From an uncultured Candidatus Saccharibacteria bacterium (lineage in GTDB: Bacteria > Patescibacteriota > Minisyncoccia > Phycocordibacterales > UBA918), in the NCBI GenBank assembly GCA_964601615.1, contig CAZRNZ010000001.1:251968-310289 (forward strand): a stretch of DNA of 58,322 nt, written 5' to 3'. The stretch's first letter is position 1. Each line of letters begins with the position of its first letter. The translations under genes were made by a program, and so were the position numbers. Below are positions 15,700 to 44,268 of this stretch, piece after piece. The notes under the pieces are model-generated. The model was given only the letters and a program-made list of their open reading frames with translations. It did no database searches and was not told where the DNA came from.

Positions 15700-15713
15700 T
15701 TAATTTCTAACAA

Positions 15714-26731: not shown

Positions 26732-27073
26732 TTAATCTTTTCCACCGAAACTCGCTACAATTCCACCAAATAGTGAAAGCACTAGTGCAAACAATAGTGC
26801 CCACCAGAAGTTAGCCACAGTGAATCCAGGCACAATGTATGCTGATAGCATAATCAGCAAGGCATCTATCACCATGATAAACAAGCCTAGAGTAAGGACG
26901 TTGATTGGCAGAGTAAGTAAAACCAAAAGGGGTTTTACAAAGGCATTGATTGCCCCGATTACTACAGCCAAAACCAAGGCTGTTACAAAACCGTCAACAC
27001 CGATACCAGGCAGAACATAAGCTGACACCATAATAACAACCGCTGATAAAACCCAATTTATTATTATCGACAT
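26732..27073 (-). CDS. Phage holin family IV-like (YvlD-type) four-TM membrane protein
   Basis: The protein is 113 aa with four TM segments and LPGI.VDGF.TALV.A.VIG.IN.FVKPLL.LLTLP. Confidence 0.7.
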   Translation of the reverse strand: MSIIINWVLSAVVIMVSAYVLPGIGVDGFVTALVLAVVIGAINAFVKPLLVLLTLPINVLTLGLFIMVIDALLIMLSAYIVPGFTVANFWWALLFALVLSLFGGIVASFGGKD

Positions 27074-28778: not shown

Positions 28779-29291
28779 TTATATTTTTCTGCTGTCACAA
28801 GCCCAATGAAGCAGGGCTTGCCTTTGTACTGGACGACAAAATAAATCCCCTGGCCTACAATTGTATCTCACCTGCGCAATATGCCGACCAATTGCGTTCC
28901 AACGTTTAATCTGTCTGTCGTCGTCTTTACTCCTCCTACCCATATAATACCGACAATACCATTGAAACCATCCGCGTGGATCGTCTTTATGTATCCAGCC
29001 TTTACTTCGCCACACACCCAAAGATTGACTAGCCTTCACCCCAAAAAGATTTAGCTTTGGATCTTGTTTATATACTCCTTCTTTCTGAAGCCGAGCTTTA
29101 GAAAACCAATCTGCTGGAAATTCATTTATACAGTCCCGCATATAAATTCCACCAAAAACACCCAAAGCCAACATTTGTTTGGGTGTTAGGTTAGGCTTAA
29201 AATTTTCATGAAAATTTTCACCCATTGGCTCAGTTAGCTTGTAACTAAACCCTTTTTGCATACGATCATTTACTAGAACAACCTTACTCAT
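28779..29291 (-). CDS. Conserved hypothetical protein (Trp/Arg-rich C-terminal motif PRGWFQWYCRYYMGRR..DD.RQIKRW)
   Basis: The ORF is long with coding-like composition. I chose the start at MSKVVLV (29291). I cannot assign a family from memory. Confidence 0.55.
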   Translation of the reverse strand: MSKVVLVNDRMQKGFSYKLTEPMGENFHENFKPNLTPKQMLALGVFGGIYMRDCINEFPADWFSKARLQKEGVYKQDPKLNLFGVKASQSLGVWRSKGWIHKDDPRGWFQWYCRYYMGRRSKDDDRQIKRWNAIGRHIAQVRYNCRPGDLFCRPVQRQALLHWACDSRKI

Positions 29292-29350
29292 TATCCTTAG
29301 GAGGATAACATCATAAAATGAGTAATGGAAATATGAGTTAAAATTCTCAA

Positions 29351-31807
29351 CTACCACCACAACCCAGTTAATCCCACACTTTTCATAAATGCGCGAGTCA
29401 AACTTCCAAAGTAACCAGCTGCTGGCACAATGTTATTTGCAGACTGATAGGAAGATAATGCCGATTGGGTTTGAGCTAAGAACAACCCAGTTACCCCCGC
29501 AGGAATACTATGACCCTGATTAATTAGGATGTTTTGCAAAGCTTTCACATCCTCTCCCTCCATACCATACTCAAGATCGCGAACTGATAAATTAGAATTA
29601 TCAGAATCCAGGAATCTTCTAAGCTCAGGAGAAATCTCCCCACCCTTGGCAACTATTTCAGCAACCATAGCGCGAATCCTTTCTGTAAGTTGCATAATAA
29701 GACTTAAAGTTTCTGCTTGATTGGAACTATCGGTTGAATTACCTCCACCACGAGAGCCAGATCTTCCACCAGAAGATGATCCTCCACCGCCACTATTATT
29801 TTCTTCCTCACCAAGTACACCCCAACGAAGATACGGCAGGCCGTCGTTTATACCCTCATCAAATCCCCACACATTCACAAAGTCCCACGAATCCTCGCCA
29901 TCGAGATACACCGGTGCAAGTGAGCCATTGTATCCATTCTTCTTAAGCTGATTCACACTCGTGAAGTCATGCCCAAAATTACAATCACCTTCGCCTGCCA
30001 AGAGTGCTTTTGGCGCATCAAGGTCACATGCAACACCCTCATCCCCCACGTATCCAACCGCATTTACTTCAGGAACCATCACCCACCCGCTATTACGAAT
30101 CTCTCCGCCATAGTTATACTCTCCCACAAGACCACCAGCAATTTCCTCTAAGGATATACTCTGTGAAGCTGCAAATGAACTGCGTATTACCGTATTTTCA
30201 TGTCCGAAGAATCCAGTCAAACCACCCGCACCGCTTCCATCTCCTTGCACAGCACTGGTTGTATAGGAACGAATAACGGAACCTCCCTCAATAGCACCTA
30301 CCAATCCACCACTGAGACTAAATAAATTTCCGTACGCATGTACTTCGCCCGTTGCATACGAATCCATAATATATCCGCCATCATCCGCATAGAGCATGCC
30401 CACCAAACCACCTATACCACTTTGTGCAGTGATATCTCCTGTTGCATATGACTCAGAAATAGTTGCACTTCCATTCATTGAACCAACCAATCCACCAAAG
30501 TAGTAGGTATCTGAGCCAGTCGCGGTCACCTCAACACTTGAACTTGATCGGTATATGTGTGCACTACTTAGGAAACCAACCATACCGCCATATCTTTGAC
30601 ATGAAGAGTACGTGCGTTCACAAGAAAGCGTACCTGATGTATGTACGTTTTCAATACGAGCATTCGCACGTACCTGTCTAGCAAGTACACCAAATTCATT
30701 TTCGTCTTGCCGTACAACATCAGCATCCACGAAAAGATTCTGCACTGTACCGCCATGAATGACTTCAAACAACGGATTATCACTACCGATAATACTATGA
30801 CCCTGACCATCAAATACACCCTCAAAGTATCCAAGATATTCTTCTGCCTCTTCAAGTGAGATATCATTTGCCAGTGCAAAGTAGAGACCTTCATTACCGT
30901 CATAGTCATATTCTAATCTATTGATGTTGAATAGTTGCTCCTGTGTTGCAATCTCAAACGGATCTTCTTCGGTACCACTTCCTGCTGCAAACAATTCTTC
31001 TATTGCAGGCGGATTTGGTTCAAGCCAAAAGTTATTTTCAATTGGCCCTTCAAAGGAAGCTGCCATATCTCCAGATTGCACATCATACTCAATGTACGCA
31101 TACTGACCATACCCCTCCGCATTTGCCTCTATACGCACATTGAACTGCGAATCGTAGTAACAACCAAGTGAGTTAAGCTGCGACACAATCTCTGAAGTTG
31201 AGGCTTCGTAGTAGCCTTCGTCAATGGTAGTTGCAAGAACTCTTGTTGAGTCCTGTGTATCACACGAGATGGTGAGTGTGGCACCAATAATTGGATCACC
31301 TGTATCACTATCTTCCACAACTCCATACCAACCATCTGCAGGAATGTTTGACTCCTCAAGAACAAAGACTCTATGTACCGCAGGAGAAAGTACACGTGTT
31401 GCCCACTGACTGAACGTTTCCTCGCTATTGACAAGTGCAACAGTTGCAACAAGTTGCGGTGCTGCATCTAGATACCCATCTGCAGTGGCTCGAATATAGA
31501 GAGGAAGACCGTCCTGACACCCAGAGAGTGTCATTGGGTCCTGACCGAGCGTAATTCCCTCTTCATCAAATTCCCCAATTATGTCCGTCCACCCTATGGT
31601 CTGCCAATTAAATCCTTCGTTGTCACACGACACTTGTACACGAGCATTTTGAATACTGCTTTCGAACTCATTAATCACCATTCCGTACACACCATTTGCA
31701 GGCAGTGCTGCTTCAATCAATTTTGGTTTCAAAAAAGGTATTGGACCAAATACTAAAACAAAAATTAGTGCTAAAGATAAGGAAGTTAAAATAAAACTTT
31801 TAGACAT
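29351..31807 (-). CDS. Large secreted surface protein: carboxypeptidase-regulatory-like modules, a GLUG-repeat region, a Gly/Ser/Arg linker and a C-terminal peptidoglycan-binding domain
   Basis: The signal/anchor is MSKSFILTSLSLALIFVLVF, with the start chosen at 31807. There are repeated GGLVG (GLUG) motifs, a GGGGSSSGGRSGSRGGG linker, and a C-terminus GEDVKALQNILINQGH.....TGLF...TQSALSSYQ that is PG_binding_1-like. Confidence 0.8.
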   Translation of the reverse strand: MSKSFILTSLSLALIFVLVFGPIPFLKPKLIEAALPANGVYGMVINEFESSIQNARVQVSCDNEGFNWQTIGWTDIIGEFDEEGITLGQDPMTLSGCQDGLPLYIRATADGYLDAAPQLVATVALVNSEETFSQWATRVLSPAVHRVFVLEESNIPADGWYGVVEDSDTGDPIIGATLTISCDTQDSTRVLATTIDEGYYEASTSEIVSQLNSLGCYYDSQFNVRIEANAEGYGQYAYIEYDVQSGDMAASFEGPIENNFWLEPNPPAIEELFAAGSGTEEDPFEIATQEQLFNINRLEYDYDGNEGLYFALANDISLEEAEEYLGYFEGVFDGQGHSIIGSDNPLFEVIHGGTVQNLFVDADVVRQDENEFGVLARQVRANARIENVHTSGTLSCERTYSSCQRYGGMVGFLSSAHIYRSSSSVEVTATGSDTYYFGGLVGSMNGSATISESYATGDITAQSGIGGLVGMLYADDGGYIMDSYATGEVHAYGNLFSLSGGLVGAIEGGSVIRSYTTSAVQGDGSGAGGLTGFFGHENTVIRSSFAASQSISLEEIAGGLVGEYNYGGEIRNSGWVMVPEVNAVGYVGDEGVACDLDAPKALLAGEGDCNFGHDFTSVNQLKKNGYNGSLAPVYLDGEDSWDFVNVWGFDEGINDGLPYLRWGVLGEEENNSGGGGSSSGGRSGSRGGGNSTDSSNQAETLSLIMQLTERIRAMVAEIVAKGGEISPELRRFLDSDNSNLSVRDLEYGMEGEDVKALQNILINQGHSIPAGVTGLFLAQTQSALSSYQSANNIVPAAGYFGSLTRAFMKSVGLTGLWW

Positions 31808-31909
31808 AATAATCCTGCCGATAAATGATGATGTTTTCATGATGAATAAATAGTAAGTAATGTTACTTTTCCCACCAACTAAAAATGTAATGATGGCGTT
31901 TTTAAAAAA

Positions 31910-31947
31910 GTAATAAATATTACAAAAAATGCCATTTCTGATACACT
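31910..31947 (+). promoter_or_regulatory. crp-like gene 1 promoter (ATTACA-N17-TACACT) overlapping the 14-bp palindrome GTAATAAATATTAC
   Basis: The palindrome is at 31910-31923, the -35 at 31919-31924 and the -10 at 31942-31947. The ATG at 31957 implies a leader of about 3 nt. About 30 nt here are conserved with the region upstream of 42123. Confidence 0.5.
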
Positions 31948-31956
31948 TATCCACAT

Positions 31957-32619
31957 ATGTCAGAGTTTTTTAAATATTCAAAGAACTTAGAGTACTTGTT
32001 TGCTGAACATGGAGAAGTAATTAACTACGAAGAAAACCAGCACCTGGTCTGGAATAAAGATAAATGTCCTTGGGTGTTTTTCTTAAAGGAAGGTTTAGTG
32101 AAAGTTACCTTTAACTTTTCTGAAAAAGATACTCGTCTTATCGGATACTTTGTTCCTGGACACATCTTTGCTCAAAGTGGTTCTTTTATTGGTGAATATG
32201 ATGGACGTCTTTCTTATACTGCTAAAACAAAAACTAAAGTTTATCGAATGAAGCATTCGATATTTATAAAATTAACTAAAAAATATCCAGAGGTGATGAA
32301 CGAGTATTTAGATATGACACTTCGTAATCAGTTATTACTGATTGACAGAGTTGTTTACCAAGGAGAAAAAGGTTTATATCTCAAGTGTGTTCGTTGGCTC
32401 TTATTTATGGCGAAATATTATGGCAAGACTACCAAAGACCATGTAGAGATAATTGTTCCAATGACACAAGAAACCGCAGCTAATTTCCTTCATACCACAC
32501 GAGAAAGCCTAAACGTAATGCTTCGCAAATTAGAGAAGGAAGAAATCATCAGTACTAAACACAAAAAGATAGAGATATTAAAACTCTCAAAACTAAAGAA
32601 GATTGTCAAAAGCGACTAA
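31957..32619 (+). CDS. Crp/FNR-family transcriptional regulator, paralog 1 (220 aa)
   Basis: It has a cNMP-binding-like beta-barrel (FFLKEGLVKV......IGYFVPGHIFAQ) and a C-terminal HTH (MTQETAANFLHTTRESLNVMLRKLEKEEIIS). It is the same length as the 42123..42785 product and clearly alignable with it. Confidence 0.8.
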   Translation: MSEFFKYSKNLEYLFAEHGEVINYEENQHLVWNKDKCPWVFFLKEGLVKVTFNFSEKDTRLIGYFVPGHIFAQSGSFIGEYDGRLSYTAKTKTKVYRMKHSIFIKLTKKYPEVMNEYLDMTLRNQLLLIDRVVYQGEKGLYLKCVRWLLFMAKYYGKTTKDHVEIIVPMTQETAANFLHTTRESLNVMLRKLEKEEIISTKHKKIEILKLSKLKKIVKSD

Positions 32620-32621
32620 AA

Positions 32622-32660
32622 CTAAAAAGCCGGATGCTTAGCATCGGGCTTTTTAGTTTT
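32622..32660. terminator. Bidirectional intrinsic terminator between crp-like gene 1 (+) and the 1904-aa gene (-)
   Basis: The sequence is aaaaa-gccggatgc-tta-gcatcgggc-tttttagttttt, with one mismatch in the stem. Confidence 0.8.
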
Positions 32661-32674
32661 TACACTCTTAACTT

Positions 32675-32959
32675 TTAATTTGCCATCAAACTATGTGCCT
32701 TTGTTCTTGAATAAACTGAGAAAATTCCCGTTCCTAAGGTCAGATTTAGCGGAGTCAAAATATCTGCCGCATATGCTTCTTGGAAACGAATCACAGCAGC
32801 TCTAGTTCTATCCACAAAGTACTGAGTTTCTTCTCCTGATGCACCAGGTCCTGAAGTACCAAGTGAGAACCCAGCACAGTTAAGGAATCTTTGTAGCGCA
32901 CGCACATCTTCACCCTCAGAACCAAAACGTAGCTCACGAGTAAAGGTGTATGCTGGACA
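32675..32959 (-). repeat. Dispersed repeat copy A: shared C-terminal peptidoglycan-binding tail module
   Basis: Its 94 codons are about 80% identical (76/94 by hand count) to 38564..38848, including a 35-nt identical DNA run (32877-32911 = 38766-38800). Confidence 0.85.
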
Positions 32960-35900
32960 TAATCCTAATTGAACATTAGACAAAACAACTGTGAAATTTG
33001 TATTTTCAGGTAAATTCAGCACATCCAAGATAAATTTTGGTAGAGAAATATTAGAATTATGGGCCAAACTAAATATATTTCTATTTTGTCTAATAAATTC
33101 AATGACTGACAATTCATTAGTATTTGACAGACGAACTTCTGGACTCACGGCACTGGAAGACGGACGACTTCCAGACGATCCGCCAGATAAACCACTACTT
33201 TGTACAACAATTCCTCCAGACACAACAGTTGCTGTTGATTGATTTCCCGCAACATCAGTTTGTGTCACCGTTATAGTTGCACCATTTGTTGGACGAGGTG
33301 AAAGCGTACAGCTATAAGTGCCATCATTCTGAACAACTGTTGTACACACAGAACCGTTTGAAGTTCGTACCTCAACAGTGGCTCCTGGTTCACCTGTACC
33401 CGTTACAGGATTACCATTTGTTGGCGTAGTCACTGTCGGTGCTGTCGGTGCTGTAGTATCAAGTACTATATCTAATTCTGTTTCGACTGACTCATTTCCA
33501 CTTGGATCAGTTTGAGTAATAACCAATGTCTGATTTCCGTCTGTTGCATTTTCATCCCACACTACCGGTGTAGAGTAGGTGCCGTTTCCACCACATACTG
33601 TAGTGGTTGGGTTTGGCACAATATTTGGATTGCTGATACTGATTGTTGCTCCTGGTTCACAAGTTCCAGAAACAGTAGTTGGATTTGAAACTTCAGCACC
33701 TTCTGCTGGACCTCCGACAACTGGAGCAACTGGTGCCACTGTGTCGATAAGTATATTTACCTGTGTCGCAGGAGAAGTGTTTCCATCAGGGTCGGTTTGA
33801 GTAACTTCCACCTCTTTCATTCCATCTTCCACGTCATCAACCCAATCAATATCAAATTCATATGTACCGTCAGCACACGTAAATGTGAGCGGACTTCCTT
33901 CAATATCAGCATGGGTAAGAGTAACTGTTGCACCAACTTCACAAGTACCGCTTACAGTCTCTGTTGTTGAACTTCCAACCGAAGGAGCATCTGGTGCTGT
34001 GGTATCAAGTATCACTGTTTCTGTCGAAGCTGCTGAAATATTTCCTGCTGCATCTTCTTGTGTAATAGAGAGTGTTTTATCTCCGTCCGCACCAGTCCAG
34101 GTGAGCGAAATAGAATATTCTCCATCGTTATCACACGTTGCTATTGTTGGATTTGGTGAGAGGTCACTGTGTGCAACATAGATTGTTGATCCGGCTTCAC
34201 ACGTACCACTCACCATCTGTGCATTTGCACTTTGAATGACTGGTGCAACTGGTGCTGTAGTGTCGAGTGTGAGTAATAGTGTTGTTGTAGTTGAATGATT
34301 GCCTGCTCCGTCAATCTGAACAATAGAAAGATTCTTGTTTCCGTCCGCACCAGTCCAGGTCACAGACGCTGTGTATGTACCATCGTTACCACAAATTACT
34401 TCTGTTGGATTTGTTGCGAGATCTGCATGAGCAATACGCACTGTTGCACCAACTTCACAGGTTCCACTTATAGTTGTTGGGCTCTGCACTGCTGCTGCAC
34501 TTGTAGGAGAACTCACTTCAGGAGCATCAGGAGCACTGGCATCAAGATCTACTTGTAATGTAGTTGAGTATGACTCATTTCCTGCTGCGTCTATTTGAGC
34601 AACATACAATGTTTGACTTCCATCTTCCGTACTACCAGACCAAGTAACTTCCACACTATAATTACCATCATTATCACAACTACCAGTTGTTGGATCAGGA
34701 TCAATTCCAGTACCAGTAATACTTATTGTCGCACCTGCCTCACAAGTTCCACTTATAGTTGTTGGACTTGATACCAAAGCAGATCCCGATGGTGATTCTA
34801 TCGTTGGAACATTTGGTGCAACAGTATCAAGAGTAATATTAAGTGTGGTTGCTGGTGATTCGTTTCCAGCAATGTTTGTTTGTGTAATAGAAAGAGTTTT
34901 TTCTCCATCAGTATCAGCGTTCCAACTTACAGGAACTTCATACTCACTACTCCCATTACATATTGTGGTTGTAGGATTTGTTACCAAATCTGGATGAGTT
35001 ATCTTAACAATAGCATTAGGTTCGCAGGTTCCACTAATAGTAGTAGGATTTGTTACGTCAGCATCTGCCGTAGGAGCAGTAATCATAGGTGCATCTGGAA
35101 TAGTAGTATTCACAATAACATCAATCGTAGTTGGAGCAGACTCATTTCCTACTGCATCAATTTGTGTAATTGTGAGTGTTTGATTTCCATCCGAATCATC
35201 CTCCCAAGTAACTGGGGTCGTATATTCCCCATTCTCGTCACATACTACCGTGGTTGGGTTTGGATCAAGATTTGAATTACTAATAGAAACTGTTGCGCCT
35301 ACCTCACAAGTTCCAGAAACTATAGTTGGGTTTGGAACTTCAGAACCTTCGATTGGACCAGTAACATCTGGTGCAGCAGGATTATCAACATCGAGTGTTA
35401 CCGTAACATTTGTCGGCTCTGAAACATTTCCTGCTGCGTCTTCTTGTGTTACCACAACCGTCTTACTGCCACTTTCTGCACTTTCTGACCAAAGGACATC
35501 TATGCTATAGGTGCCGTTCCCGCTTCCATCATCTACACAAGTAACTTCTGCTGGACTTCCATCAATGTCTGCGTGAGCAATACGCACTGTTGCGCCAATT
35601 TCACACGTACCAGAGAAAGTAGTTGGATTCCCTACTGTCGCACCTGATGTCGGAGCAGACACTACCGGCTCATCTGGCGGTATATCATCAACTTCATTAA
35701 TAGTAATAGTGAAATTCTTTTCAAACTCATTCCCCGCACCATCTTCTACCTTGATACAAATGTCATAGCTATTCTTCATATCGTAGTCGATTGCAGTATT
35801 TACATTGAGATTAGTTCCACTAATTGCAAAACTACTATCATCTGCGCCAGGCACAGCACATCCGAGGGTGAATGTATGCGAGTCACCATAGTCAGGATCA

Positions 35901-38389
35901 ATTGCACTGATTGTTGCCGCAGTTCCTCCTGAAGGAATATTTTCATTTATCGTCAGCGTACTTCCTCCATTGAGACGAATATCGGTTGGTGGAACATTAT
36001 TATCATCATTCACCAATATTACAAACACATCCTCACTTTCGACTGCACTATAGGTACTATCGGAACTACCTGTGTTTACTGATACAACAATGGTTGTTGT
36101 ATGGTCAATATTTTGAATAGCATCATCAACACCAGTTACTGTAACGGTTTGTGGTGTATCCCAGTTTGCGGTTGTGAATGTGAGTGTTGCTGGAGAAACA
36201 GTTGCTTCAGCGGTGTCATTTGAAACGATATTCAATACCACGTCAGTCAGTGGTTGCGAGTTTAACACTGCTGTAAAAGTCCCCGTGCCAGCATTTTCCC
36301 CTACTGATAACTCTGATTTAGAAAGAGTAATCCCCGCAACATCGTCATCGATAATTGAGACGTCAATTTCGATATTACTTGCTGTCAGATATTCTTCTGC
36401 AGAATCAAGTCCGACGGCGATAGTTACCATCGCACTATCATCTCGCACATAGTTATCATCAACTGCTGCGATAATGACTCTTTGCTTCACGTTCCAGTTT
36501 GCGGGCGTGAATGTAATCGATGAAGTAGAAACAGTTACTTCATTTGTATCAGAAGAAGTAAACGTGATGGTTACATCATCTGTTGGTTGTGTACTGAGAG
36601 AAATATCAAGAGGTGCCGTACCAATGTCTTCAAAAAGCACAACATCATCAAGCGAACCACCATTTACATCAAGCACGAGTTCCGCAACATCATCCTCGAT
36701 GATACGGACAGCAACCTGCTTACTCTTTGAGCTGAAGCGCGTATCGCTCGCCACTACTCCCGTACTCACCGTCACAGTAGTCTGCGTTGTCTGCACAATA
36801 CCATCATCAACACCGGTCACCGTCACAAATTGCGGTGTCTCCCAGTTTGAATAGTTGAATGTCAGTGTTGCAGGAGAAACTGTTACTTCCCCCGTATGTG
36901 CAGAAGCAACATTCACTGTTACGGCTGTACCAGAGTTTGGTTGTGAAGACAGTCGTACTTCAAATGTTTGCGTCCCTCCGTTTTCATCAACATCAAGAGA
37001 TGTTTCTGATACTTCAATTCCTCCGTTTGGAACTTTTGCGAGCGTAAAGTATGTGCTGTCACTAAGCGCAATTGCTGATGTCGTAATTCCGCTTGCATTC
37101 AAAGGCCCCATATCTTGAGTACCAGAAGTGAAATCGCCATCATCATCAAGAATCAAACGCCATTGTGCGTTATATCCAGTAAATCGTAGATATGCACTCT
37201 GCGTAAATCCTGGAGTCTTCTGTACCTTCCATGCACGAGCAAGTCTCTCAGTACTTCCTGACGGCAAGTTTACCGGACTCGAGGCAAGTACTCCTCCATT
37301 GTTTGAGAACGACATAAAATTCATGTCCGTAACAGGATTCGCTCTTGAAGTGTTTGATGTAGTGAAATCGTTAGTAAGCGACACTGTCAAAATATCCCCC
37401 GTATCAGTCGAACGAGAAATTCTATTTGAAAACTTCGATTCCTCATCTCGGCCCAAACCAAATATATCCCTATTATATGCTCCAGCCTTTGTGTGGCTCC
37501 ACATAATTGTTCCATCCGATGCGGTGTAGTTTTGGGGTGTTGACTGATCAAGGTGTATACCATGTTTGAATGCAAGATATGAGTTTACCTTATTCGCTTC
37601 GGCAGCATTAAGATATCGATTGAAGACAATGATATCTGCAATCCCACCAGTAAGATAGGTGTTGTAGACACCTGATTGTGTGGTTCGCTTTGCACCAACC
37701 ACATATCCACTCGCAGGAATATTTGGAATAAAGTTTCCGTTATTATTTGATCGGTACGTTTGACCAGCAAGCGGTTCTCCGTTTACTGCATACTTATAGT
37801 CATTGAGCTCATCTGTCGCCAAGTTTTGTACCTGCCCAATGACATACCTCCCTGCAAGTGCAGGATTGTCTCGTCGAATATAGGTAACATACGAATCACT
37901 TGTGCCTGAGATGGTGTTACCTATACCACCAGTGGCACTATTGATTGTCCAGAGTAGGTTTGCCCTATTACCAGATACGGTACCTCCCGTGTACAACACA
38001 CCTCCATTTCCTTTACCAACGAAAAAGACTGAACGCGGACCAGGACCAGTAAACCCAGATGATGTTATACGCATCATTCTATCGTTTCCATCATTTGAGA
38101 ATACTCCAGCATGATAGTTTACATAGTTTTCAGCATAGGTGAGCCTATTACTATCACCATCTTTTGTTAGATGGTTAGTTCCAGCCAACTCATTCCAATT
38201 ATTAATAAGACCTCCTGAGTGTGTAATACCATACGAAGGAGTAAGCCATAAAACGTTCCCACTTGAAACACCGCCAGGGGCGGCAGAAACAGAAACAGCG
38301 CTAGTTAAATAAAATAAAAAAGATATAACTAAAAATAGTATTAAGAATATTTTTCTAAACACTATATTTCCAAAAGAAAAAACGCTCAT
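32675..38389 (-). CDS. Giant (1904 aa) secreted surface protein: LamG-like, 3 Calx-beta-like, cadherin-like and 9 Ig-like repeats, then a linker and a C-terminal peptidoglycan-binding domain
   Basis: It has a signal peptide (AVSVSAAPGG). The N-terminal region is concanavalin/LamG-like. There are three units with LTF..ANW.TPQ.VTVTGVDD. A cadherin-like unit follows (ISAIDPD....FAISG..L.....DYD...Y.I...V.D..GN......ITI.EVDD). Eight SGTCE.GATV units plus one degenerate unit come next. The tail is about 80% identical to that of the next giant protein. Confidence 0.9.
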   Translation of the reverse strand: MSVFSFGNIVFRKIFLILFLVISFLFYLTSAVSVSAAPGGVSSGNVLWLTPSYGITHSGGLINNWNELAGTNHLTKDGDSNRLTYAENYVNYHAGVFSNDGNDRMMRITSSGFTGPGPRSVFFVGKGNGGVLYTGGTVSGNRANLLWTINSATGGIGNTISGTSDSYVTYIRRDNPALAGRYVIGQVQNLATDELNDYKYAVNGEPLAGQTYRSNNNGNFIPNIPASGYVVGAKRTTQSGVYNTYLTGGIADIIVFNRYLNAAEANKVNSYLAFKHGIHLDQSTPQNYTASDGTIMWSHTKAGAYNRDIFGLGRDEESKFSNRISRSTDTGDILTVSLTNDFTTSNTSRANPVTDMNFMSFSNNGGVLASSPVNLPSGSTERLARAWKVQKTPGFTQSAYLRFTGYNAQWRLILDDDGDFTSGTQDMGPLNASGITTSAIALSDSTYFTLAKVPNGGIEVSETSLDVDENGGTQTFEVRLSSQPNSGTAVTVNVASAHTGEVTVSPATLTFNYSNWETPQFVTVTGVDDGIVQTTQTTVTVSTGVVASDTRFSSKSKQVAVRIIEDDVAELVLDVNGGSLDDVVLFEDIGTAPLDISLSTQPTDDVTITFTSSDTNEVTVSTSSITFTPANWNVKQRVIIAAVDDNYVRDDSAMVTIAVGLDSAEEYLTASNIEIDVSIIDDDVAGITLSKSELSVGENAGTGTFTAVLNSQPLTDVVLNIVSNDTAEATVSPATLTFTTANWDTPQTVTVTGVDDAIQNIDHTTTIVVSVNTGSSDSTYSAVESEDVFVILVNDDNNVPPTDIRLNGGSTLTINENIPSGGTAATISAIDPDYGDSHTFTLGCAVPGADDSSFAISGTNLNVNTAIDYDMKNSYDICIKVEDGAGNEFEKNFTITINEVDDIPPDEPVVSAPTSGATVGNPTTFSGTCEIGATVRIAHADIDGSPAEVTCVDDGSGNGTYSIDVLWSESAESGSKTVVVTQEDAAGNVSEPTNVTVTLDVDNPAAPDVTGPIEGSEVPNPTIVSGTCEVGATVSISNSNLDPNPTTVVCDENGEYTTPVTWEDDSDGNQTLTITQIDAVGNESAPTTIDVIVNTTIPDAPMITAPTADADVTNPTTISGTCEPNAIVKITHPDLVTNPTTTICNGSSEYEVPVSWNADTDGEKTLSITQTNIAGNESPATTLNITLDTVAPNVPTIESPSGSALVSSPTTISGTCEAGATISITGTGIDPDPTTGSCDNDGNYSVEVTWSGSTEDGSQTLYVAQIDAAGNESYSTTLQVDLDASAPDAPEVSSPTSAAAVQSPTTISGTCEVGATVRIAHADLATNPTEVICGNDGTYTASVTWTGADGNKNLSIVQIDGAGNHSTTTTLLLTLDTTAPVAPVIQSANAQMVSGTCEAGSTIYVAHSDLSPNPTIATCDNDGEYSISLTWTGADGDKTLSITQEDAAGNISAASTETVILDTTAPDAPSVGSSTTETVSGTCEVGATVTLTHADIEGSPLTFTCADGTYEFDIDWVDDVEDGMKEVEVTQTDPDGNTSPATQVNILIDTVAPVAPVVGGPAEGAEVSNPTTVSGTCEPGATISISNPNIVPNPTTTVCGGNGTYSTPVVWDENATDGNQTLVITQTDPSGNESVETELDIVLDTTAPTAPTVTTPTNGNPVTGTGEPGATVEVRTSNGSVCTTVVQNDGTYSCTLSPRPTNGATITVTQTDVAGNQSTATVVSGGIVVQSSGLSGGSSGSRPSSSAVSPEVRLSNTNELSVIEFIRQNRNIFSLAHNSNISLPKFILDVLNLPENTNFTVVLSNVQLGLCPAYTFTRELRFGSEGEDVRALQRFLNCAGFSLGTSGPGASGEETQYFVDRTRAAVIRFQEAYAADILTPLNLTLGTGIFSVYSRTKAHSLMAN
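33225..35680 (-). repeat. Nine in-frame tandem coding repeats (about 210-290 bp each) encoding Ig-like modules
   Basis: Eight units contain SGTCE(V/A/P)GATV...NPT...C..(D/N)G.Y......W......G...L.ITQ.D.AGN.S, plus one degenerate unit (TGTGEPGATVEV). Confidence 0.8.
36050..37030 (-). repeat. Three in-frame tandem repeats (about 330 bp) encoding Calx-beta-like modules
   Basis: The recurring pattern is G(T/A)..F.V.L.SQP...V......S.DT.E.TVS...LTFT.ANW..PQ.VTVTGVDD. Confidence 0.7.
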
Positions 38390-38500
38390 AAGACACTAAT
38401 ACGAAACTATTAATAGTCCTCGAGCGACTCTATATTTTTTTATTATATACCTTAAATATTTTTATTTTAAAAAAAATATTATTTATGGGGACAACTAACA

Positions 38501-38538
38501 TAAAACAGCGCCGCCCTTCGGGCGGCGCTGTTTTATTT
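38501..38538. terminator. Intrinsic terminator separating the 1150-aa and 1904-aa giant genes
   Basis: The sequence is aaaa-cagcgccgccc-ttc-gggcggcgctg-ttttatttt, with an 11-bp GC-rich stem. Confidence 0.85.
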
Positions 38539-38563
38539 TCTTTTACAAAGTCGAACCTTGTAA

Positions 38564-38848
38564 TTAACGAGCCATCAAACTATGAGCTTTCATGCGTGAG
38601 TAACTAGAGAAAATACCAGTACCTGAAGTCAGTCCAATCGGTGACAAAATATCAGCAGAGTATGCCTCTTGGAACTTAATTACTGAATCACGAGTACGCT
38701 CTACAAAATACTGAGTCTCCTCTCCACTTGCACCAGGACCAGAAGTAGCTAGAGAGAAACCAGAACAGTTAAGGAATCTTTGTAGCGCACGCACATCTTC
38801 TCCTTCATCACCAAACTGCAGGTCACGAGTGAATGTGTATGCAGCACA
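38564..38848 (-). repeat. Dispersed repeat copy B: shared C-terminal peptidoglycan-binding tail module
   Basis: See copy A. Both copies are in direct orientation, 5.9 kb apart. Confidence 0.85.
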
Positions 38849-41800
38849 TAGTCCTGGAGTCGCAGCCTTGCTATCAAGACCAAGTAGGACTAGTAAAGCT
38901 GAAGGTAGAGTAATTCCAGCATTATGAGCCTGAACAAATAGACTACGATATTGATTGATAAAGTCTGAAGCTGAGGTTGCAGAATTTACAGCAACAGGTG
39001 CAGAAGTGTTTCCGCTTGGACGACTACCTGAAGAACCGCCACTTCTTCCAGAACCTCCGCCGTTATTATTACCGCCGTTGTTGTTCCCATTTCCACCTAC
39101 AGGGTTAAGTGTTGTTGCTGGGTGATTATCTTGTCCGGCACCCTGCCAAAGAATCACAGAATTGTGCGTAAGGCCATCAGCAAACGGGCGATCAGAACCA
39201 GCATCTGCATAACCATTGTTGTTGGTATCGCGGATATCAAACACTGTCCATGCACCATCACCATTCGCGAACCTGTACAAGTTACCTACCGTTCCCTGAT
39301 TGAAGGATATATTTGAGGTAGTGCCTTCATTTACTTCCACCCACACATCGCCCATAAGTTCATTCTCAACGAAAAGTACGTTGTTGGTATTTTTGATTAC
39401 AAGAACAGGTTCTTCTTCTGAGCTAAATGTATTTCCTTGAATGGTAATGTCATTTGAATCATCAATTTCAATTCCATTATCTACAGAAGAAACTGTGTTA
39501 CCAGTAATAGTACCTCCATTAAGATATTCAATTTCTATACCACGATCACCAATGTTTGAAAGCTCATTATCAATGATAGTAATGTTTGCGCTTGGAATAT
39601 TTTCATCAAGAACATTATCATAGACATCTGTGACATCAATACCATCACTTTCTGCACCATCGATACTGTTATTTGAAACAGTAGCGTTTGAAACACCGGC
39701 TAGATAGATTGCATCACCAATTATATTAGATAGTTTATTACCTTGTACCGTAATAGTATTTGATGAATAAAAAACAATACCATCAGAATCAGTATTCACT
39801 ATTTCATTATCTTCAATAGTTGCATTTTGCACATTAAATCCCATGACTGCATCTTCAGCAGTAATTGTAGTATCTCGCACAACAACAGTATCACCACCTA
39901 AGAACACCACACCTGAAGAATATCCTGAGATAGTAATGTTTTTTATTTCAATATTACTGTATGTATTATTATCATATCCGACAACAACAGCCGCTCCATT
40001 ATTATCATTTGCAACATCTTCAGAGATAGTGAATCCATTTCCATCAATCACTACATTATTTGCCTCAATTTCAATACAGTTATCATCCACATTTGAATCT
40101 TGATCAATATCATTCATCAAGGTGTAGTATCCTGACCAACTTGCAACAAAACATTCAGTAACTTCATACGGATTAGCTTCAGTTCCATTACCTGGGAACG
40201 GTGCTTGCGGTGCCGTAATTACAATAGGTGCAACACTTGCCGGAACATCAACTGCTGTCACGGTTCCTTCGCCATCATCATTACTTGTGCGCAACTGCAC
40301 AAATGGATAGGTTCCTGCCGCTGGATTGGTGATATCCTCAAAGGTCACCGTAATACGATCACCTGCGTTTACAGTTTCAGAAACACCAACCGTTCTTTTC
40401 TCATTATTGTCTCCGCCGCCACCCATATGAGTCACCGTTGCTGGTACGCCATTTATGGTCACGTCTGGGAGCATGCCATCAACTATAAATTCTGCCGGGA
40501 AATCAACTTCTAGAAGATTATCTGGATTTGGTGTAGAAACAACATACTCAAAAGTGTATGTAACACCTGTTGCGTGCTCTATATAACTTGAAGCTGTATA
40601 ACTAAGATAAAACATTGTTCCTCCAACAAGAGGTGCCACCTCTACATCAAAAGTAGAACGCTTTACTGCAGGCTTGTTGTTTATATCGTTCATTCCAAAC
40701 TCAACGACGTATTTTGGAAGTTTTGCCTCACAAGGAAGATCATTCCATTTTCCTTCTGCACCCGCTACCGAGAATCGTATCTGTGCACAATTTTCTCCAC
40801 CTGGATAATTTTCGTTACTGGTATTATTTGGTTCATTCGCACTCCCCACCTTATTCCAGTTTGCATACTGCCCAGGAACAATAGAACCATCCCGTCCACC
40901 AGTCCAGAATTTTGTCCCCGCTTCAGGTCCTGTTACCCAGAACCACTCTCCCTCACCACTCCCGGTGTAACCTCCAGTAACGTCAGTATCATCACTTGCT
41001 CCAAACCATCCATCCTCATCAATACGTGCACGGACAAAGTTGTGCTCGTCTTCATCAACAATAGTAGCGAGATATCCGCTGAGTTCACTTGTTTCTCCCG
41101 GGAATTTGTATACTTGTGCTGCCGCTCTCGCCTCAGTCCATGTAATACCATCACCACCCACAGTTACTACCTTATATACATGACCGTTTGAGTGGCGGTA
41201 CACACTCCCATCTGCCTCATCAATAAGCGCTTCAACTTCATAAGTACCACCTATATATGGTGCAGTGTAGGTAAGTGTCTCAAGTGCATTGTTGATAGCA
41301 CCGATTGTTCCGCGGAACTTAAGATTGTTTCCTTCATCATCTCCATTAAAAGTAAGACCTACGCTATTACCAAATGAAAGAGTTCCAATAACTACATAAA
41401 GTGTCATATCAATAACATCATTTGAGTTACCACCGACTACTTCAAGATCTGTAATTGCAACGGTTTCACCTGCGTCCACAGATTTGCTTGATGGATTAGT
41501 TAAATCAATTGGATCTGATAGGTCACATGCAGCAGTACTGAATGTCATATCGTTTCCATGAACCATGCCATCTTCACTACTATTTGGAACAAAAACCGCC
41601 AACGCACGATAATGGTACGTTGTACCGCAGATTAGATTTTCGATATGGTGACTGTAAGGATCAGTCACCATCTCTGCTTCTGGCAAATTACCTACATAGG
41701 TAGATACACCGTATGAGGTGTCGGTTCCATACTCAAACCCTTTCCCATAAAAACCAAACTCACTTGTCGTATTAGCGTTAAGAGTCGCAGTTGTCTGCGT

Positions 41801-42016
41801 CACATCTATTGCTGCAAGTGTTGTAATCAATTCAGAAAACGTTGAAGCCTCTACTACCCCTGTTTGTGGCACAAAAGGCACAATGTTTGCAAACGGCGTA
41901 AACACCAATGCAAACACAGTAACAAGTGCAGCAACTTTGCTAATAAACTTATAAGTTGAGTAATGTAATTTTTGTGAGTTCATAAAATTGTTATTAAAAT
42001 AAAATTCCTTACTCAT
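38564..42016 (-). CDS. Giant (1150 aa) secreted surface protein: FN3-like region, canonical C-type lectin domain, right-handed parallel beta-helix repeats, linker and C-terminal peptidoglycan-binding domain
   Basis: It has an N-terminal anchor. The CTLD reads WTEARAAAQ....GYLATI.DEDEHNFV....WFGASD....GEWFWV.....W....EPNN....ENCAQI......KWNDLPC. PbH1-like repeats follow (NITISG...GVVF, ..IEDNEI.., ..VSNNSI..). The tail is paralogous to the 32675..32959 region. Confidence 0.9.
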   Translation of the reverse strand: MSKEFYFNNNFMNSQKLHYSTYKFISKVAALVTVFALVFTPFANIVPFVPQTGVVEASTFSELITTLAAIDVTQTTATLNANTTSEFGFYGKGFEYGTDTSYGVSTYVGNLPEAEMVTDPYSHHIENLICGTTYHYRALAVFVPNSSEDGMVHGNDMTFSTAACDLSDPIDLTNPSSKSVDAGETVAITDLEVVGGNSNDVIDMTLYVVIGTLSFGNSVGLTFNGDDEGNNLKFRGTIGAINNALETLTYTAPYIGGTYEVEALIDEADGSVYRHSNGHVYKVVTVGGDGITWTEARAAAQVYKFPGETSELSGYLATIVDEDEHNFVRARIDEDGWFGASDDTDVTGGYTGSGEGEWFWVTGPEAGTKFWTGGRDGSIVPGQYANWNKVGSANEPNNTSNENYPGGENCAQIRFSVAGAEGKWNDLPCEAKLPKYVVEFGMNDINNKPAVKRSTFDVEVAPLVGGTMFYLSYTASSYIEHATGVTYTFEYVVSTPNPDNLLEVDFPAEFIVDGMLPDVTINGVPATVTHMGGGGDNNEKRTVGVSETVNAGDRITVTFEDITNPAAGTYPFVQLRTSNDDGEGTVTAVDVPASVAPIVITAPQAPFPGNGTEANPYEVTECFVASWSGYYTLMNDIDQDSNVDDNCIEIEANNVVIDGNGFTISEDVANDNNGAAVVVGYDNNTYSNIEIKNITISGYSSGVVFLGGDTVVVRDTTITAEDAVMGFNVQNATIEDNEIVNTDSDGIVFYSSNTITVQGNKLSNIIGDAIYLAGVSNATVSNNSIDGAESDGIDVTDVYDNVLDENIPSANITIIDNELSNIGDRGIEIEYLNGGTITGNTVSSVDNGIEIDDSNDITIQGNTFSSEEEPVLVIKNTNNVLFVENELMGDVWVEVNEGTTSNISFNQGTVGNLYRFANGDGAWTVFDIRDTNNNGYADAGSDRPFADGLTHNSVILWQGAGQDNHPATTLNPVGGNGNNNGGNNNGGGSGRSGGSSGSRPSGNTSAPVAVNSATSASDFINQYRSLFVQAHNAGITLPSALLVLLGLDSKAATPGLCAAYTFTRDLQFGDEGEDVRALQRFLNCSGFSLATSGPGASGEETQYFVERTRDSVIKFQEAYSADILSPIGLTSGTGIFSSYSRMKAHSLMAR

Positions 42017-42075
42017 ATTGTAAAAAACTTCACAAATATCAAGAACCTCACCATGTAATGGAGTTAATATATTAA

Positions 42076-42115
42076 TTGTGAATTAATTAACAAAAATAGG
42101 CACTTCTGCTACACT
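42076..42115 (+). promoter_or_regulatory. crp-like gene 2 promoter (TTAACA-N17-TACACT) overlapping the Crp-box-like palindrome TTGTGAATTAATTAACAA
   Basis: The palindrome is at 42076-42093 (TGTGA-N6-TAACA, one mismatch from perfect symmetry). The -35 is at 42087-42092 and the -10 at 42110-42115. The ATG at 42123 implies an essentially leaderless mRNA. Confidence 0.5.
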
Positions 42116-42122
42116 TATCCAC

Positions 42123-42785
42123 ATGTCTGACTTCTTTACGCCTAAACTAGCCTTAAATGACTTCTTTTATGAAAACGGTGAACTGGTGAACTATCCTGTG
42201 GGTCACTTTGTTATCCACCAAAAAGACGAATACGGCTACATGTCTCTTGTTATTAAGGGTGCCATACGAGCAACATGCTCTTTTGATGAAGATTTGGAGC
42301 GTACTGTAGCCTACATCATCCCCAATACTATTATTGGTCAACCAGGTGCTAACTATGGTTTCAAAGATGGTAGATTAAACTTCGTAGCTGAGACTCCCAT
42401 AACAGTAAGGAGGGTGAAGAAGGAGTTATTCATGAAGCGCATCAAAGAAAACGCTCATTTTACGAGCGACTATGTCGATGTATTACAGCGTAATCAAATA
42501 GTTCTACTTAATCGTGTTGCCGCCCTAAGCGCTAAGGGAGTAGATGCCCAGTGTGCTCACCTATTAAATTTTATGCGTCTTTACTATGGAGTACGCAAAG
42601 GAAATACCTGTGAAATAGTTGTGCCACTAACCCAAACTTCGATTGCTGAAATGATCTTTGCTACTCGCGAGAGTGTAAATAGTTCTATTAAAAACCTGAT
42701 AGTCGAGAAAATAATAAAGTCAGAAAAAAAGAAAATTACTATTCTAAATATCAAGAAATTAGAACAGCTATCTAAGCGACTTTAG
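42123..42785 (+). CDS. Crp/FNR-family transcriptional regulator, paralog 2 (220 aa)
   Basis: It has the same architecture and length as 31957..32619, with the HTH LTQTSIAEMIFATRESVNSSIKNLIVEKIIKS. It is divergent from the 1150-aa lectin gene. Confidence 0.8.
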   Translation: MSDFFTPKLALNDFFYENGELVNYPVGHFVIHQKDEYGYMSLVIKGAIRATCSFDEDLERTVAYIIPNTIIGQPGANYGFKDGRLNFVAETPITVRRVKKELFMKRIKENAHFTSDYVDVLQRNQIVLLNRVAALSAKGVDAQCAHLLNFMRLYYGVRKGNTCEIVVPLTQTSIAEMIFATRESVNSSIKNLIVEKIIKSEKKKITILNIKKLEQLSKRL

Positions 42786-44007
42786 TCTCACTACTTTTCA
42801 CAAAACGCAAAGCGATGAATGCTCCTAGGACAAAGATTGTCATAGTCAAAAGTGCTAAGCGATAACGGTCATCTCCATAAGAAATCATTCCCGTAGCTAC
42901 CAGACCCCAAACCAAAGGACCAAGCAATGACGAAGCTCTTTCTATTAAGCCAAAAAAGCCAAAAGCTAGATTGCGACTACCTTCTGGAGCAATGTATGAA
43001 AATATTGAACGAGACAGTGTCCAACTAGCCCCAAACCAAAATCCCATCAGAGTAGTAGCTGTCATAAATATAGAGAAGTTTTGTACCAATGCTAGTGTTG
43101 GCAAAATAATCAGCCACCCTCCAACTATATAAGTGAAGGTCTTTTTGTGACCTATCTTATCGGCTATAAAACCAGATAATATCGAACCAATTGCAGCAGT
43201 CACAAATATACCAAGCAAAATTCCTGTCTTTACCAAATCTTCTACACGCCAAACGTTTTCCAGAAAAATAGAAAAGTTATTTGAAGCAGTTAAAATTGCA
43301 TCGTAGAAAAGAAAATGAGCCAATAAAAACAAAGCTACTCCTGGGGTCAAAAATAATAACTTGGCTTCTTTTAATAAGTTTTGTACTTCAGATTTAAATT
43401 GAAAAACTTTCTGCTCTTTCTTTGGCTCAAAGAAAAACAGTAACATCGGCAACGCAAATATGGCGAAAGTAACTATCGCTGGAAATAAAGTTTCCACCCT
43501 AGGAGAAGATCCGAACAAAGACAAGGTACCCATAGCAAAAGGTAACGTGAGTAAAAGCACGGCAATTTGTCCAGAAAAATTAGCTAAAAATCCCCAACCA
43601 GAAACTTTCCCTCGATTAGAAACGGAGGTGATATCCACCAAAAGTGGCGTATAGAAAGTAAATGTCAGCAGAAAACTATAGAATCCAAGACAAAATAAAG
43701 TCAGAGCTAAAATACCATTTCCATATATAGCTGCAGAAGCAGTGGCTAGATAAAAAATAATCATCGCTGATGTGGCGATGCGTAAACCGGATATTCTTCT
43801 AAAACGTGTATCGAGCAGAAAACCAACTACTGGAACAGTTAGTAAAAGTAGAAAGGCTGCCGCCACAAAAGCCAAATTAAAAGACAAATCAGAAATCCTC
43901 TGCTCTACCACAATCCATTGCGCGAAATATAAAGAGAAAGCTATCTGAGTAAAAGAGTTAGCAAAGTCATACAGTGCCCAGAGAAAAATATTTAATTTTG
44001 TGTTCAT
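42772..44007 (-). CDS. MFS transporter, UMF1 (Atg22-like) family
   Basis: It has 12 TM segments, and the N-terminus WALYDFANSFTQIAFSLYF is characteristic of UMF1-family MFS proteins. Confidence 0.8.
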   Translation of the reverse strand: MNTKLNIFLWALYDFANSFTQIAFSLYFAQWIVVEQRISDLSFNLAFVAAAFLLLLTVPVVGFLLDTRFRRISGLRIATSAMIIFYLATASAAIYGNGILALTLFCLGFYSFLLTFTFYTPLLVDITSVSNRGKVSGWGFLANFSGQIAVLLLTLPFAMGTLSLFGSSPRVETLFPAIVTFAIFALPMLLFFFEPKKEQKVFQFKSEVQNLLKEAKLLFLTPGVALFLLAHFLFYDAILTASNNFSIFLENVWRVEDLVKTGILLGIFVTAAIGSILSGFIADKIGHKKTFTYIVGGWLIILPTLALVQNFSIFMTATTLMGFWFGASWTLSRSIFSYIAPEGSRNLAFGFFGLIERASSLLGPLVWGLVATGMISYGDDRYRLALLTMTIFVLGAFIALRFVKSSETKVA

Positions 44008-44019
44008 TTGTGGTTTTGA

Positions 44020-44268
44020 TTATTTCCTATATTTAATCAGACAAAACCTTCCTTTGGAAGGCTTATAAACTAAATCAGGATATTTTTCTACCAGCTTCCA
44101 TACACAACCGTTTACAGTTTTTGGGTGTAAATCAGAATCCCACTTAGCAACTTTTTCCAATAATTCAGACCACTGTAAGCCATTAGGATTTTTATCGAGC
44201 AGTTGCAAAAGCTTCTCATTGATTCTGCCAGTAATGGTTATTTTCTTAATGATCTTCTTCATAATCAT
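44020..44268 (-). CDS. Small winged-helix protein (Mrr_N-like fold?)
   Basis: The protein is 82 aa. LLQLLDKNPNGLQWSELLEKV.......HPKTVNGCVWKLVEKYPDLVYKPSKGRFCL resembles N-terminal winged-helix domains of Mrr-type proteins. An ATGA overlap joins it to the upstream gene. Confidence 0.45.
   Translation of the reverse strand: MIMKKIIKKITITGRINEKLLQLLDKNPNGLQWSELLEKVAKWDSDLHPKTVNGCVWKLVEKYPDLVYKPSKGRFCLIKYRK

Follow-up and report, generated by a model that had tools for sequence, protein, structure and literature searches.

Gene Organisation of the Locus

The 58-kb stretch of DNA analysed here (the window) comes from contig CAZRNZ010000001.1 of an uncultured Candidatus Saccharibacteria bacterium and carries three very large minus-strand genes interleaved with two plus-strand genes for regulators of the Crp/FNR family. 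The scan of open reading frames (ORFs) placed the P1 ORF at 29351-31954 (818 amino acids (aa) and a stop codon from the Met start at 31807), P2 at 32675-38389 (1904 aa) and P3 at 38564-42016 (1150 aa as the longest ORF, 1139 aa from Met12, 38564-41983). The regulator genes CrpA (31957-32619) and CrpB (42123-42785), each of 220 aa, are divergent from P1 and P3, respectively, across the intergenic spacers IGR1 (31808-31956) and IGR2 (42017-42122). A gene for a major facilitator superfamily (MFS) transporter of the ATG22-like type (42772-44007, minus strand) is convergent with CrpB and overlaps its 3' end. The ORF scan thus agrees with the first-pass annotation, which was made from the letters of the window and described three minus-strand genes of about 819, 1904 and 1150 codons and two plus-strand paralogues of 220 codons, each divergent from a giant gene.

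The Two Regulators

The alignment of CrpA with CrpB is gapless, with 35% of residues identical (E 8e-43). Both matched the Pfam families cNMP_binding (PF00027; 33.1 and 30.1 bits against 27.5) and HTH_Crp_2 (PF13545; 53.6 and 46.8 bits against 27). The AlphaFold model of the regulator, with a predicted local distance difference test (pLDDT) score of 93.9, showed eight strands in residues 20-99, a long helix of the dimerisation type at 111-135 and a winged helix-turn-helix (HTH) at 171-194. Its template modelling (TM) scores were 0.83-0.87 to NtcA, CRP and GlxR, and 0.8-0.87 with CprK included; NtcA matched most closely in fold, though a likeness of this kind is generic to the superfamily. The family profile matched E. 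coli CRP over its full length at 6e-20, followed by DNR, mycobacterial CRP, NtcA and GlxR. The barrel of the cyclic nucleoside monophosphate type and the C-terminal HTH that had been read from the sequence at first pass are therefore borne out by the Pfam scores, the CRP profile and the model.

None of the curated equivalog models (CRP, FNR, FixK, NtcA and FnrL) came near its cut-off for the regulators. The CRP model NF008732 gave 34 and 20.6 bits against 266, the FNR model NF008365 gave 19.1 bits against 228, and the NtcA model TIGR03697 gave 20.8 bits for CrpA and 36.4 bits for CrpB against 244.95. An FNR-type N-terminal Cys cluster is absent from CrpA, which has no Cys before residue 36 and two in total (C36 and C144). 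The regulators belong to the Crp/FNR superfamily and to none of its characterised subfamilies.

In the HMMER alignment the contacts of CRP with cyclic AMP (cAMP) are not kept: E72 is replaced by Q and R82 by G, S83 is variable, and the family motif reads FAQSGSF…DG.L. Within the family R131 is invariant, and R60 and R97 are nearly so. Because these canonical contact residues are not conserved, the effector is probably not cAMP. The equivalents of R180 and E181 in the CRP recognition helix are kept as T-R-E-S in the regulator family, which would be consistent with a TGTGA-type half-site; TGTGA is the half-site given for E. coli CRP in PMC1635313. A difference in DNA specificity between CrpA and CrpB was considered and rejected, as T-R-E-S-x-N occurs in both recognition helices and the sequences lend such a difference no support.

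CrpA has orthologues at 57-64% identity, which form a family of about 218 aa in Candidatus Paceibacteria/Paceibacterota, and its relatives in Candidatus Saccharibacteria stand at about 45%. CrpB falls in a small clade of its own and is an old, long-branched paralogue, with orthologues at 54-84% identity that have the same kind of neighbour. The locus had been called duplicated at first pass; it does hold two paralogous modules, but the duplication is not recent, given the 35% identity of the regulators and the separate orthologues of the CrpB type.

In a 2025 survey of about 6,000 genomes, two-domain CRP/FNR proteins were notably absent from the Candidate Phyla Radiation (CPR) clade in the sample (PMC12531629). 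The window and about 80 related protein clusters form a conserved two-domain Crp/FNR subfamily in Paceibacteria and Saccharibacteria that has evidently not been studied before; searches of the accessible literature found nothing on Crp-type regulators or on surface-protein regulation in Patescibacteria.

The Large Proteins and Their Common Tail

P1, P2 and P3 each begin with an N-terminal signal or anchor and share the tail design proposed at first pass. A PG_binding_1 domain (PF01471) occupies the extreme C-terminus, the last 60-80 or so residues, with 30.6, 31.0 and 27.1 bits for P1, P2 and P3 against a gathering score of 23, and a Gly/Ser/Arg linker precedes it in all three. Profile searches thus support both the peptidoglycan (PG)-binding tails and the Crp/FNR fold. 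No sorting signal was found in P1, P2 or P3, all of which end in PG_binding_1.

The P2 and P3 tails are 76-80% identical at the DNA level over the last 292 nt or so only, and outside this stretch P2 and P3 are unrelated, which marks the tail as a module that has been shuffled or converted. A word-indexed search with the P3 tail returned 3 proteins, and an exhaustive search, which was used instead, gave matches in 3460 protein clusters (E<=1e-10). Of the 150 best, 58 are at least 800 aa long, and 78 have the end of the domain no more than 25 residues from the C-terminus. PG_binding_1 is a domain known above all from wall hydrolases and metalloproteases. The window proteins resemble other non-covalently bound wall proteins (PG_binding_1, LysM, SH3b and GW types) in their N-terminal signal, variable passengers, flexible linker and C-terminal murein-binding domain; they differ in that PG_binding_1 here ends adhesin-like proteins of 0.8-1.9 thousand aa, with close tail relatives of up to 4473 aa.

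P1 consists of the hydrophobic signal/anchor, one or more CarboxypepD_reg-like domains, a region like the N-terminal part of IgA1 protease (ZmpA) with GLUG repeats, the linker GGGGSSSGGRSGSRGGG and the tail. An AGGA lies 5 nt before the Met start at 31807. Glug and Peptidase_M26_N exceed their Pfam gathering scores, NCBIfam gave partial ZmpA-like matches, and residues 323-501 resemble the N-terminal non-catalytic part of a solved streptococcal IgA1 protease (2e-12). A catalytic domain and an HExxH motif were looked for in P1, and neither was detected.

P2 has a signal peptide (…SVSA/AP), an N-terminal region of about 420 aa, three repeats of about 113 aa, a borderline cadherin domain and nine Big_6/Ca_tandemer Ig-like repeats, followed by the linker SGGSSGSRPSS, a spacer and the tail. 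The Ig-like repeats matched PF17936 above the gathering score in nine stretches (E 7e-84) and the NCBIfam model NF033510, 'Ca2+-stabilized repeat-containing adhesin', in eight stretches with 164.8 bits against a cut-off of 50; a DNA periodicity of 282 nt runs across them. Cadherin reached 27.6 bits against a gathering score of 28.8. Neither LamG nor Calx-beta gave a Pfam match in P2 at E<=1, two P2 segments were without a sequence match in the PDB, and residues 455-815 had only a sub-threshold match to fn3_6 (24.0 bits against 26.4). AlphaFold, run on the N-terminal region as a single sequence, failed to give a usable model (pLDDT 31), and E was 0.36 when this region was compared pairwise with a relative that bears LamG. 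P2 does show a LamG_3-like end motif (GGIADIIVFNRYLNAAE), without statistical support.

P3 starts with a signal/anchor and an N-terminal region; a borderline C-type lectin domain and a parallel beta-helix come next, and the linker GGGSGRSGGSSGSRPSG and a spacer lead to the tail. Beta_helix/NosD exceeds its Pfam gathering score. Lectin_C reached 20.1 bits against 22.6, and the P3 orthologue in the related locus L028 has Lectin_C on record without a mark of weakness. FN3 gave no Pfam match in P3 at E<=1, and full-length P3 had no sequence match in the PDB. Of the binding modules named at first pass, the GLUG repeats of P1, the nine Ig-like repeats of P2 and the beta-helix of P3 therefore stand, the cadherin and C-type lectin domains are borderline, and LamG, Calx-beta and FN3 are unsupported. 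A diversity-generating retroelement acting on the lectin domain was rejected, as there was no reverse transcriptase among the ORFs scanned, which lie outside about 13.7-18.9 kb, and no repeat of the template/variable type.

The domain content suggests that the large proteins serve contact with, or attachment to, host cells or surfaces. A different role is possible, though we hold it to be the less probable one: the regulation could be as proposed below while the large proteins are wall enzymes or structural envelope proteins, or while the tail grips host murein. They could, for example, be polysaccharide- or cell-wall-degrading beta-helix enzymes for feeding on the host. The parallel beta-helix fold is common in polysaccharide lyases and hydrolases, and the P3 core is a helix of the NosD/pectate-lyase type; the P1 core is like the non-catalytic N-terminal part of streptococcal IgA1 protease. 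The tail looks like a generic module, since 78 of the best 150 matches, proteins of 90-4473 aa, have the matching domain at their extreme C-terminus. Cell-wall degradation has reportedly been tied to giant genes of predatory or CPR bacteria, to go by the title of one preprint (bioRxiv 10.1101/2023.11.21.568195). However, P1 has no detectable catalytic domain or HExxH, no enzyme family in the PDB or Pfam matched P3, the P2 repeats match the adhesin model far above its cut-off, and the lectin-like and cadherin-like modules point to binding.

Conservation of the Regulator-Giant Gene Pair

We examined 31 related loci, of which about 20, labelled as Paceibacteria or Saccharibacteria, were informative for synteny; a scan of metagenome contigs contributed only 9 loci, mostly short. 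The synteny between Crp-like genes of 220 aa and giant wall-anchored genes, which had been put forward as a check at first pass, proved to be conserved. The regulator is divergent from a PG-tailed or sortase-anchored protein of at least 590 aa in about 15 of the roughly 20 informative loci: the CrpA and CrpB loci of the window (winA and winB), L001, L002, L019, L020, L022, L023, L031, L028, L030, L025, L026, L027 and probably L007. Among the other called genes of the related loci, about 12 of 181 or so are that large, so the pairing lies far above background. The remaining flanking genes vary from locus to locus. Because the pairing recurs in related genomes, it is not a chance pattern; taken with the conserved operator boxes described below, this recurrence makes it probable that the regulator is a switch dedicated to cell-surface proteins.

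In loci of the CrpA type, the divergent upstream neighbour is a P1 orthologue or another PG_binding_1-tailed protein of about 800-960 aa (L001, L002, L019, L020/L021, L022, L023 and L031). Full-length P1 orthologues (46-50% identity) stand divergent to CrpA orthologues in L031 and L001, and weaker relatives of P1 occur in L020, L002, L022 and L019. The ATG22-like MFS gene is usually convergent downstream. P3 orthologues adjoin CrpB orthologues in L028 and L030. The order in L028, whose regulator is 84% identical to CrpB, is that of the window: a P2-like protein, a protein with Lectin_C, Beta_helix and PG_binding_1, and the regulator; at the place of the MFS gene, L028 has a convergent gene that is truncated by the end of the contig. 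In L030 (54% identity to CrpB) there are a P3-like protein, the regulator and the MFS gene.

The MFS gene is the conserved third member of a triad [giant]-[Crp]-[MFS] in many relatives, and the MFS neighbour was also found in L001, L002, L003, L020, L021, L022, L030 and L031; in both paralogue clades it abuts the 3' end of the Crp-like gene or overlaps it by 4-14 nt. The window looks like two ancestral units of this kind joined head to tail, with one MFS gene left.

The Saccharibacteria-type members (41-46% identity) stand divergent to large surface proteins with PA14/NHL, Glug or Lectin_C passengers (L025, L026, L027 and L007). These proteins carry C-terminal sorting signals of the xPNTG or LAxTG type, and a sortase gene follows, so that the distant relatives of the module do use a sortase, unlike the window proteins with their PG_binding_1 end. 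In L024, a sortase-type surface-protein operon lies downstream of the regulator instead. The products of L024:10925-13126, L025:8075-9865, L026:2408-9819 and L007:1413-2225 end '…DGGxLDxDGxxNGxIxDPVGLAsqvVGaPNTG(I/L)GG(R/K)-stop', followed by the sortase gene; the xPNTG signal is followed by hardly any hydrophobic or charged residues, an unusual feature in a sortase substrate. In L026, a second Crp-like gene follows 2.7 kb downstream (13403-14077; 14528-16336 region), and a heliorhodopsin gene abuts the first regulator.

Predicted Operators and Promoters

The upstream regions of 25 regulator genes were compared by eye, and leave-one-out matrices of 16 nt were run over 279 kb. In most of the 25 genes, a 16-nt CRP-like palindrome, TGTRA-N6-TYACA, with an A-run precedes the regulator ATG, and its centre lies 36.5-40.5 nt upstream of the ATG in most loci. 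About 17 nt after the box stands TGnTAYACT, and the regulator ATG follows 6-9 nt on. From this short distance a leaderless mRNA is predicted, which would put the box at about -40, the position of a class II activator. In the leave-one-out scans, 12 of the 27 matches of at least 11 bits fall within 260 nt upstream of a regulator ATG, and 10 of those 12 are centred at -36.5 to -40.5. With a matrix built from non-window loci only, the best two matches of the window both fall in IGR2 (18.4 and 16.4 bits), and they are its only matches of at least 12 bits. The first-pass annotation had named IGR1 and IGR2 as the places where the regulators should bind; CRP-type boxes in exactly these two spacers give independent support for the regulatory link.

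In IGR2, the distal box TGTAAAAAACTTCACA (42019-42034; 18.4 bits, rank 1 in the window) is centred 43.5 nt from the start codon of P3 (Met12) and 96.5 nt from that of CrpB. The proximal box TGTGAATTAATTAACA (42077-42092; 16.4 bits, rank 2) lies 58 bp away from it, with its centre 38.5 nt before the CrpB ATG. An extended -10-like element of CrpB, TGCTACACT (42107-42115, plus strand), ends 7 nt before the ATG and forms TTAACA-17-TACACT with an upstream TG. On the minus strand, a -35/-10-like pair, TTTACA-17-TATTTT, overlaps the distal box and fits the Met12 start of P3. The public annotation starts P3 at Met12, 11 codons inside the longest ORF, in agreement with the predicted promoter geometry; because the distal box sits only 2 nt from the ATG of the longer ORF, Met12 (41983) is the likelier start. 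A third, weaker TGTAAT/TGTAAA element was noted between the main boxes, 60.5-61.5 nt before the regulator ATG (window 42054-42069; L019:9932, L028:6551 and L030:2303).

The IGR1 boxes are both degenerate and keep a GTA-N8-TAC core at orthologous positions. The proximal box AGTAATAAATATTACA (31909-31924; 9.0 bits, rank 8 in the window) is centred 40.5 nt before the CrpA ATG, as in orthologous loci, and the closest CrpA relative (L031) has a proximal box that is likewise A-initial. The distal candidate AGTAAGTAATGTTACT (31852-31867; GTA-N8-TAC core, below 5 bits) has its centre 97.5 nt from the start codon of CrpA and 52.5 nt from that of P1; its position agrees with that of the distal boxes in L001, L020, L022, L028 and L030 (95.5-98.5 nt from the regulator ATG). 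An extended -10-like element of CrpA, TGATACACT (31939-31947, plus strand), ends 9 nt before the ATG, from which a leaderless or near-leaderless mRNA is predicted.

It is conceivable, though we give it little credence, that the circuit is one of autoregulation only. In that case the proximal box would be genuine, transcription of the giant genes would not depend on the regulators, and the distal boxes would be chance matches or decayed sequence. The proximal box is indeed much better conserved than the distal one, the distal candidate of IGR1 scores low with no clear P1 promoter beside it, and L003, L006 and L029 keep the regulator without a giant neighbour, two of them with the box. However, distal boxes are strong in winB (18.4 bits), L001 (17.1), L028 (15.3), L030 (12.9) and L022 (11.9), and the box pairs are 57-58 bp apart in winA, winB, L001, L020, L022, L028 and L030. 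The distal box also lies 37.5-48.5 nt from the ATG of the giant gene in L001, L019, L020 and L022, a range that includes the winB distance. Moreover, autoregulation alone leaves the conserved divergent synteny unexplained.

P2 has a sigma-70-like promoter of its own, TTTAAA-18-TATAAT (38442-38471, minus strand; 10/12 matches), and the matrix scan found no Crp-type box upstream of it; nor did it find one upstream of the MFS gene of the window. A strong bidirectional terminator hairpin of 17 bp (38500-38536) closes the P3 transcription unit and separates P2 from P3, and a small bidirectional terminator-like hairpin (32633-32645) lies between the convergent ends of CrpA and P2. The first-pass annotation had treated all three giant genes as one island with the regulators; this stands for P1 and P3, whose spacers hold boxes, but not for P2 with its own promoter, no box and a terminator towards P3. 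P2 would rather be a third wall-tethered, adhesin-like protein of the Ca-tandemer type that has its tail module in common with P3 and a promoter of constitutive type.

Boxes were also detected elsewhere in distant loci, namely before a gene for a 733-aa protein with a sortase operon (L024), before a trypsin-like protease gene (L023) and, in L026, before both a CHASE histidine kinase gene and the second Crp gene. Those of L026 score 15-20 bits and stand before the second Crp-like gene and on both sides of the CHASE histidine kinase/response regulator pair. The Crp-like proteins might thus be global regulators in the manner of CRP, NtcA and GlxR, with the giant genes one target among many or neighbours kept by descent, an explanation that we consider unlikely. 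Good matrix matches before unrelated genes (the CHASE histidine kinase, the trypsin-like protease and a small ORF next to Ldh_2) speak for it; Patescibacteria are held to have few transcription factors, so each may have a broad regulon, and the window covers no more than 58 kb of a contig that is at least 310 kb long. On the other hand, the two IGR2 boxes are the only matches of at least 12 bits in the window, and the pairing outlasts the full turnover of the other neighbours, even the change of anchor from a PG_binding_1 tail to a sortase signal. Several genomes also hold at least two paralogues, each beside its own surface-protein gene (the window and L026), which is typical of local regulators.

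Proposed Regulatory Model

We read the window as two tandem copies of a conserved Patescibacterial regulatory module in which a Crp factor co-regulates itself and a wall-anchored giant protein, and we put the probability of this reading at about 60%. A regulator dimer would bind two palindromes 57-58 bp apart, either TGTRA-N6-TYACA or, in IGR1, the degenerate GTA-N8-TAC. The proximal box, about 38.5-40.5 nt before the regulator ATG, would act in the manner of a class II activator site, with the extended -10 ending 7-9 nt before the ATG of a leaderless mRNA, and the distal box would take the mirror position before the giant gene (43.5 nt from the P3 Met12 ATG, and the similar distances given above for L001, L019, L020 and L022). 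In this way the regulator would govern both its own expression and that of the surface protein, most likely by activation rather than repression, in response to a small molecule that is probably not cAMP. As was proposed at first pass, the locus may be ligand-switched and serve adhesion. The CRP-like operator boxes, the promoter geometry and the box pairing of the regulator/giant-gene spacers are new computational predictions.

Several observations weigh against this reading. The loci compared are phylogenetically related, so their counts are not independent, and the giant neighbour is missing in four or five relatives (L003, L006, L029 and L014). No link to the regulators is apparent for P2, which is the largest gene of the island. 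The IGR1 boxes are weak (9.0 and below 5 bits), a convincing -10 element for P1 was sought and not found, and L002, L019 and L020 have weak distal boxes. In addition, single matrix scores of 16-18 bits arise in shuffled sequence too, and the count of the degenerate pattern across the window is not above that in shuffles. As the window-wide count is not enriched, the motif argument rests on position and cross-species conservation.

A bolder version of the co-regulation reading, which we offer as tentative, is that a Patescibacteria-specific clade of full-length Crp/FNR proteins forms a dedicated on/off switch for host-contact proteins and senses a metabolite other than a cyclic nucleotide, with two such circuits side by side in the window. 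The metabolite is perhaps host-derived and imported by the ATG22-like MFS transporter. The IGR1 operators (AGTAA…TTAC) may have drifted from the IGR2 consensus (TGTGA…TCACA), which could keep the two circuits separate.

Comparison with Known Systems

The closest functional analogue may be PrfA of Listeria monocytogenes with its internalins. PrfA is a member of the Crp/FNR family that does not use cAMP, binds the palindromic box TTAACANNTGTTAA at about -40 and autoregulates. It switches on large wall-associated internalins for host contact, of which InlA is sortase-anchored and InlB non-covalently bound to the wall. The window would share with it a Crp/FNR regulator that probably does not use cAMP, a box at about -40 and a large wall-associated target, here predicted. 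It differs in having no detectable specific sequence relationship to PrfA, the best matches being CRP, NtcA and GlxR, in the type of box, in the fixed divergent pair with two boxes 57-58 bp apart, in the PG_binding_1 anchor and in the host organism, a Patescibacterium.

By sequence and operator, E. coli CRP appears to be the closest, with the full-length profile match at 6e-20, the R-E of the recognition helix, the TGTGA-N6-TCACA design and a box about 40 nt before the predicted start. However, the score of 34 bits is far from the equivalog cut-off of 266, E72, R82 and S83 are not conserved, and the regulators of the window appear local rather than global, with promoters predicted to be leaderless. 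NtcA comes closest by fold and by the core of the IGR1 boxes, which fit the NtcA-type GTA-N8-TAC. It is the cyanobacterial sensor of 2-oxoglutarate, acts at class-II-like promoters without a -35 element and autoregulates. Unlike with NtcA, the equivalog scores of the window regulators are 20.8 and 36.4 bits against 244.95, and nitrogen-assimilation genes are not nearby.

In Patescibacteria (CPR), the timing of host attachment, and gene regulation at large, are hardly known. A specific operator, a promoter geometry and target genes turn a vague 'adhesin island' into a testable circuit and nominate candidate host-interaction proteins together with a candidate signal-import gene.

Genomic Setting and Neighbouring Genes

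The flanks of the locus hold ordinary chromosomal genes: GroEL, RNase J, Mur ligases, DnaX, SerRS, DprA, TopA, RelA/SpoT and tRNA-Gln. The GC content is 0.40-0.43 in the giant genes against 0.34-0.40 in the flanks, a slight rise only. A recent horizontal or mobile island was considered and rejected, since the GC content is barely raised and the P1-Crp-MFS order is chromosomal and conserved. The Rfam search, which would have indicated a riboswitch or another RNA in the spacers, gave tRNA-Gln only.

Two ORFs next to the region had no Pfam/NCBIfam match: one of 193 aa (28779-29360, minus strand), which overlaps the end of P1 by 10 nt, and one of 500 aa (44265-45767, minus strand) beside the MFS gene. 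Just upstream of the region lie genes for a membrane protein of the Phage_holin_4_2 family (26732-27073, minus strand) and a PspC-domain protein (25083-26684, plus strand); both are of the envelope-stress type, and their link to the finding is not obvious. A further ORF of 552 aa (21711-23369, minus strand) has internal repeats of 243 nt (81 aa) and no Pfam/NCBIfam match, and it is probably another repetitive secreted protein. The third-best matrix match of the window (21779-21794; 11.2 bits) falls inside its 3' end, and a Gmad2 Ig-like protein is encoded nearby at 23786-24367.

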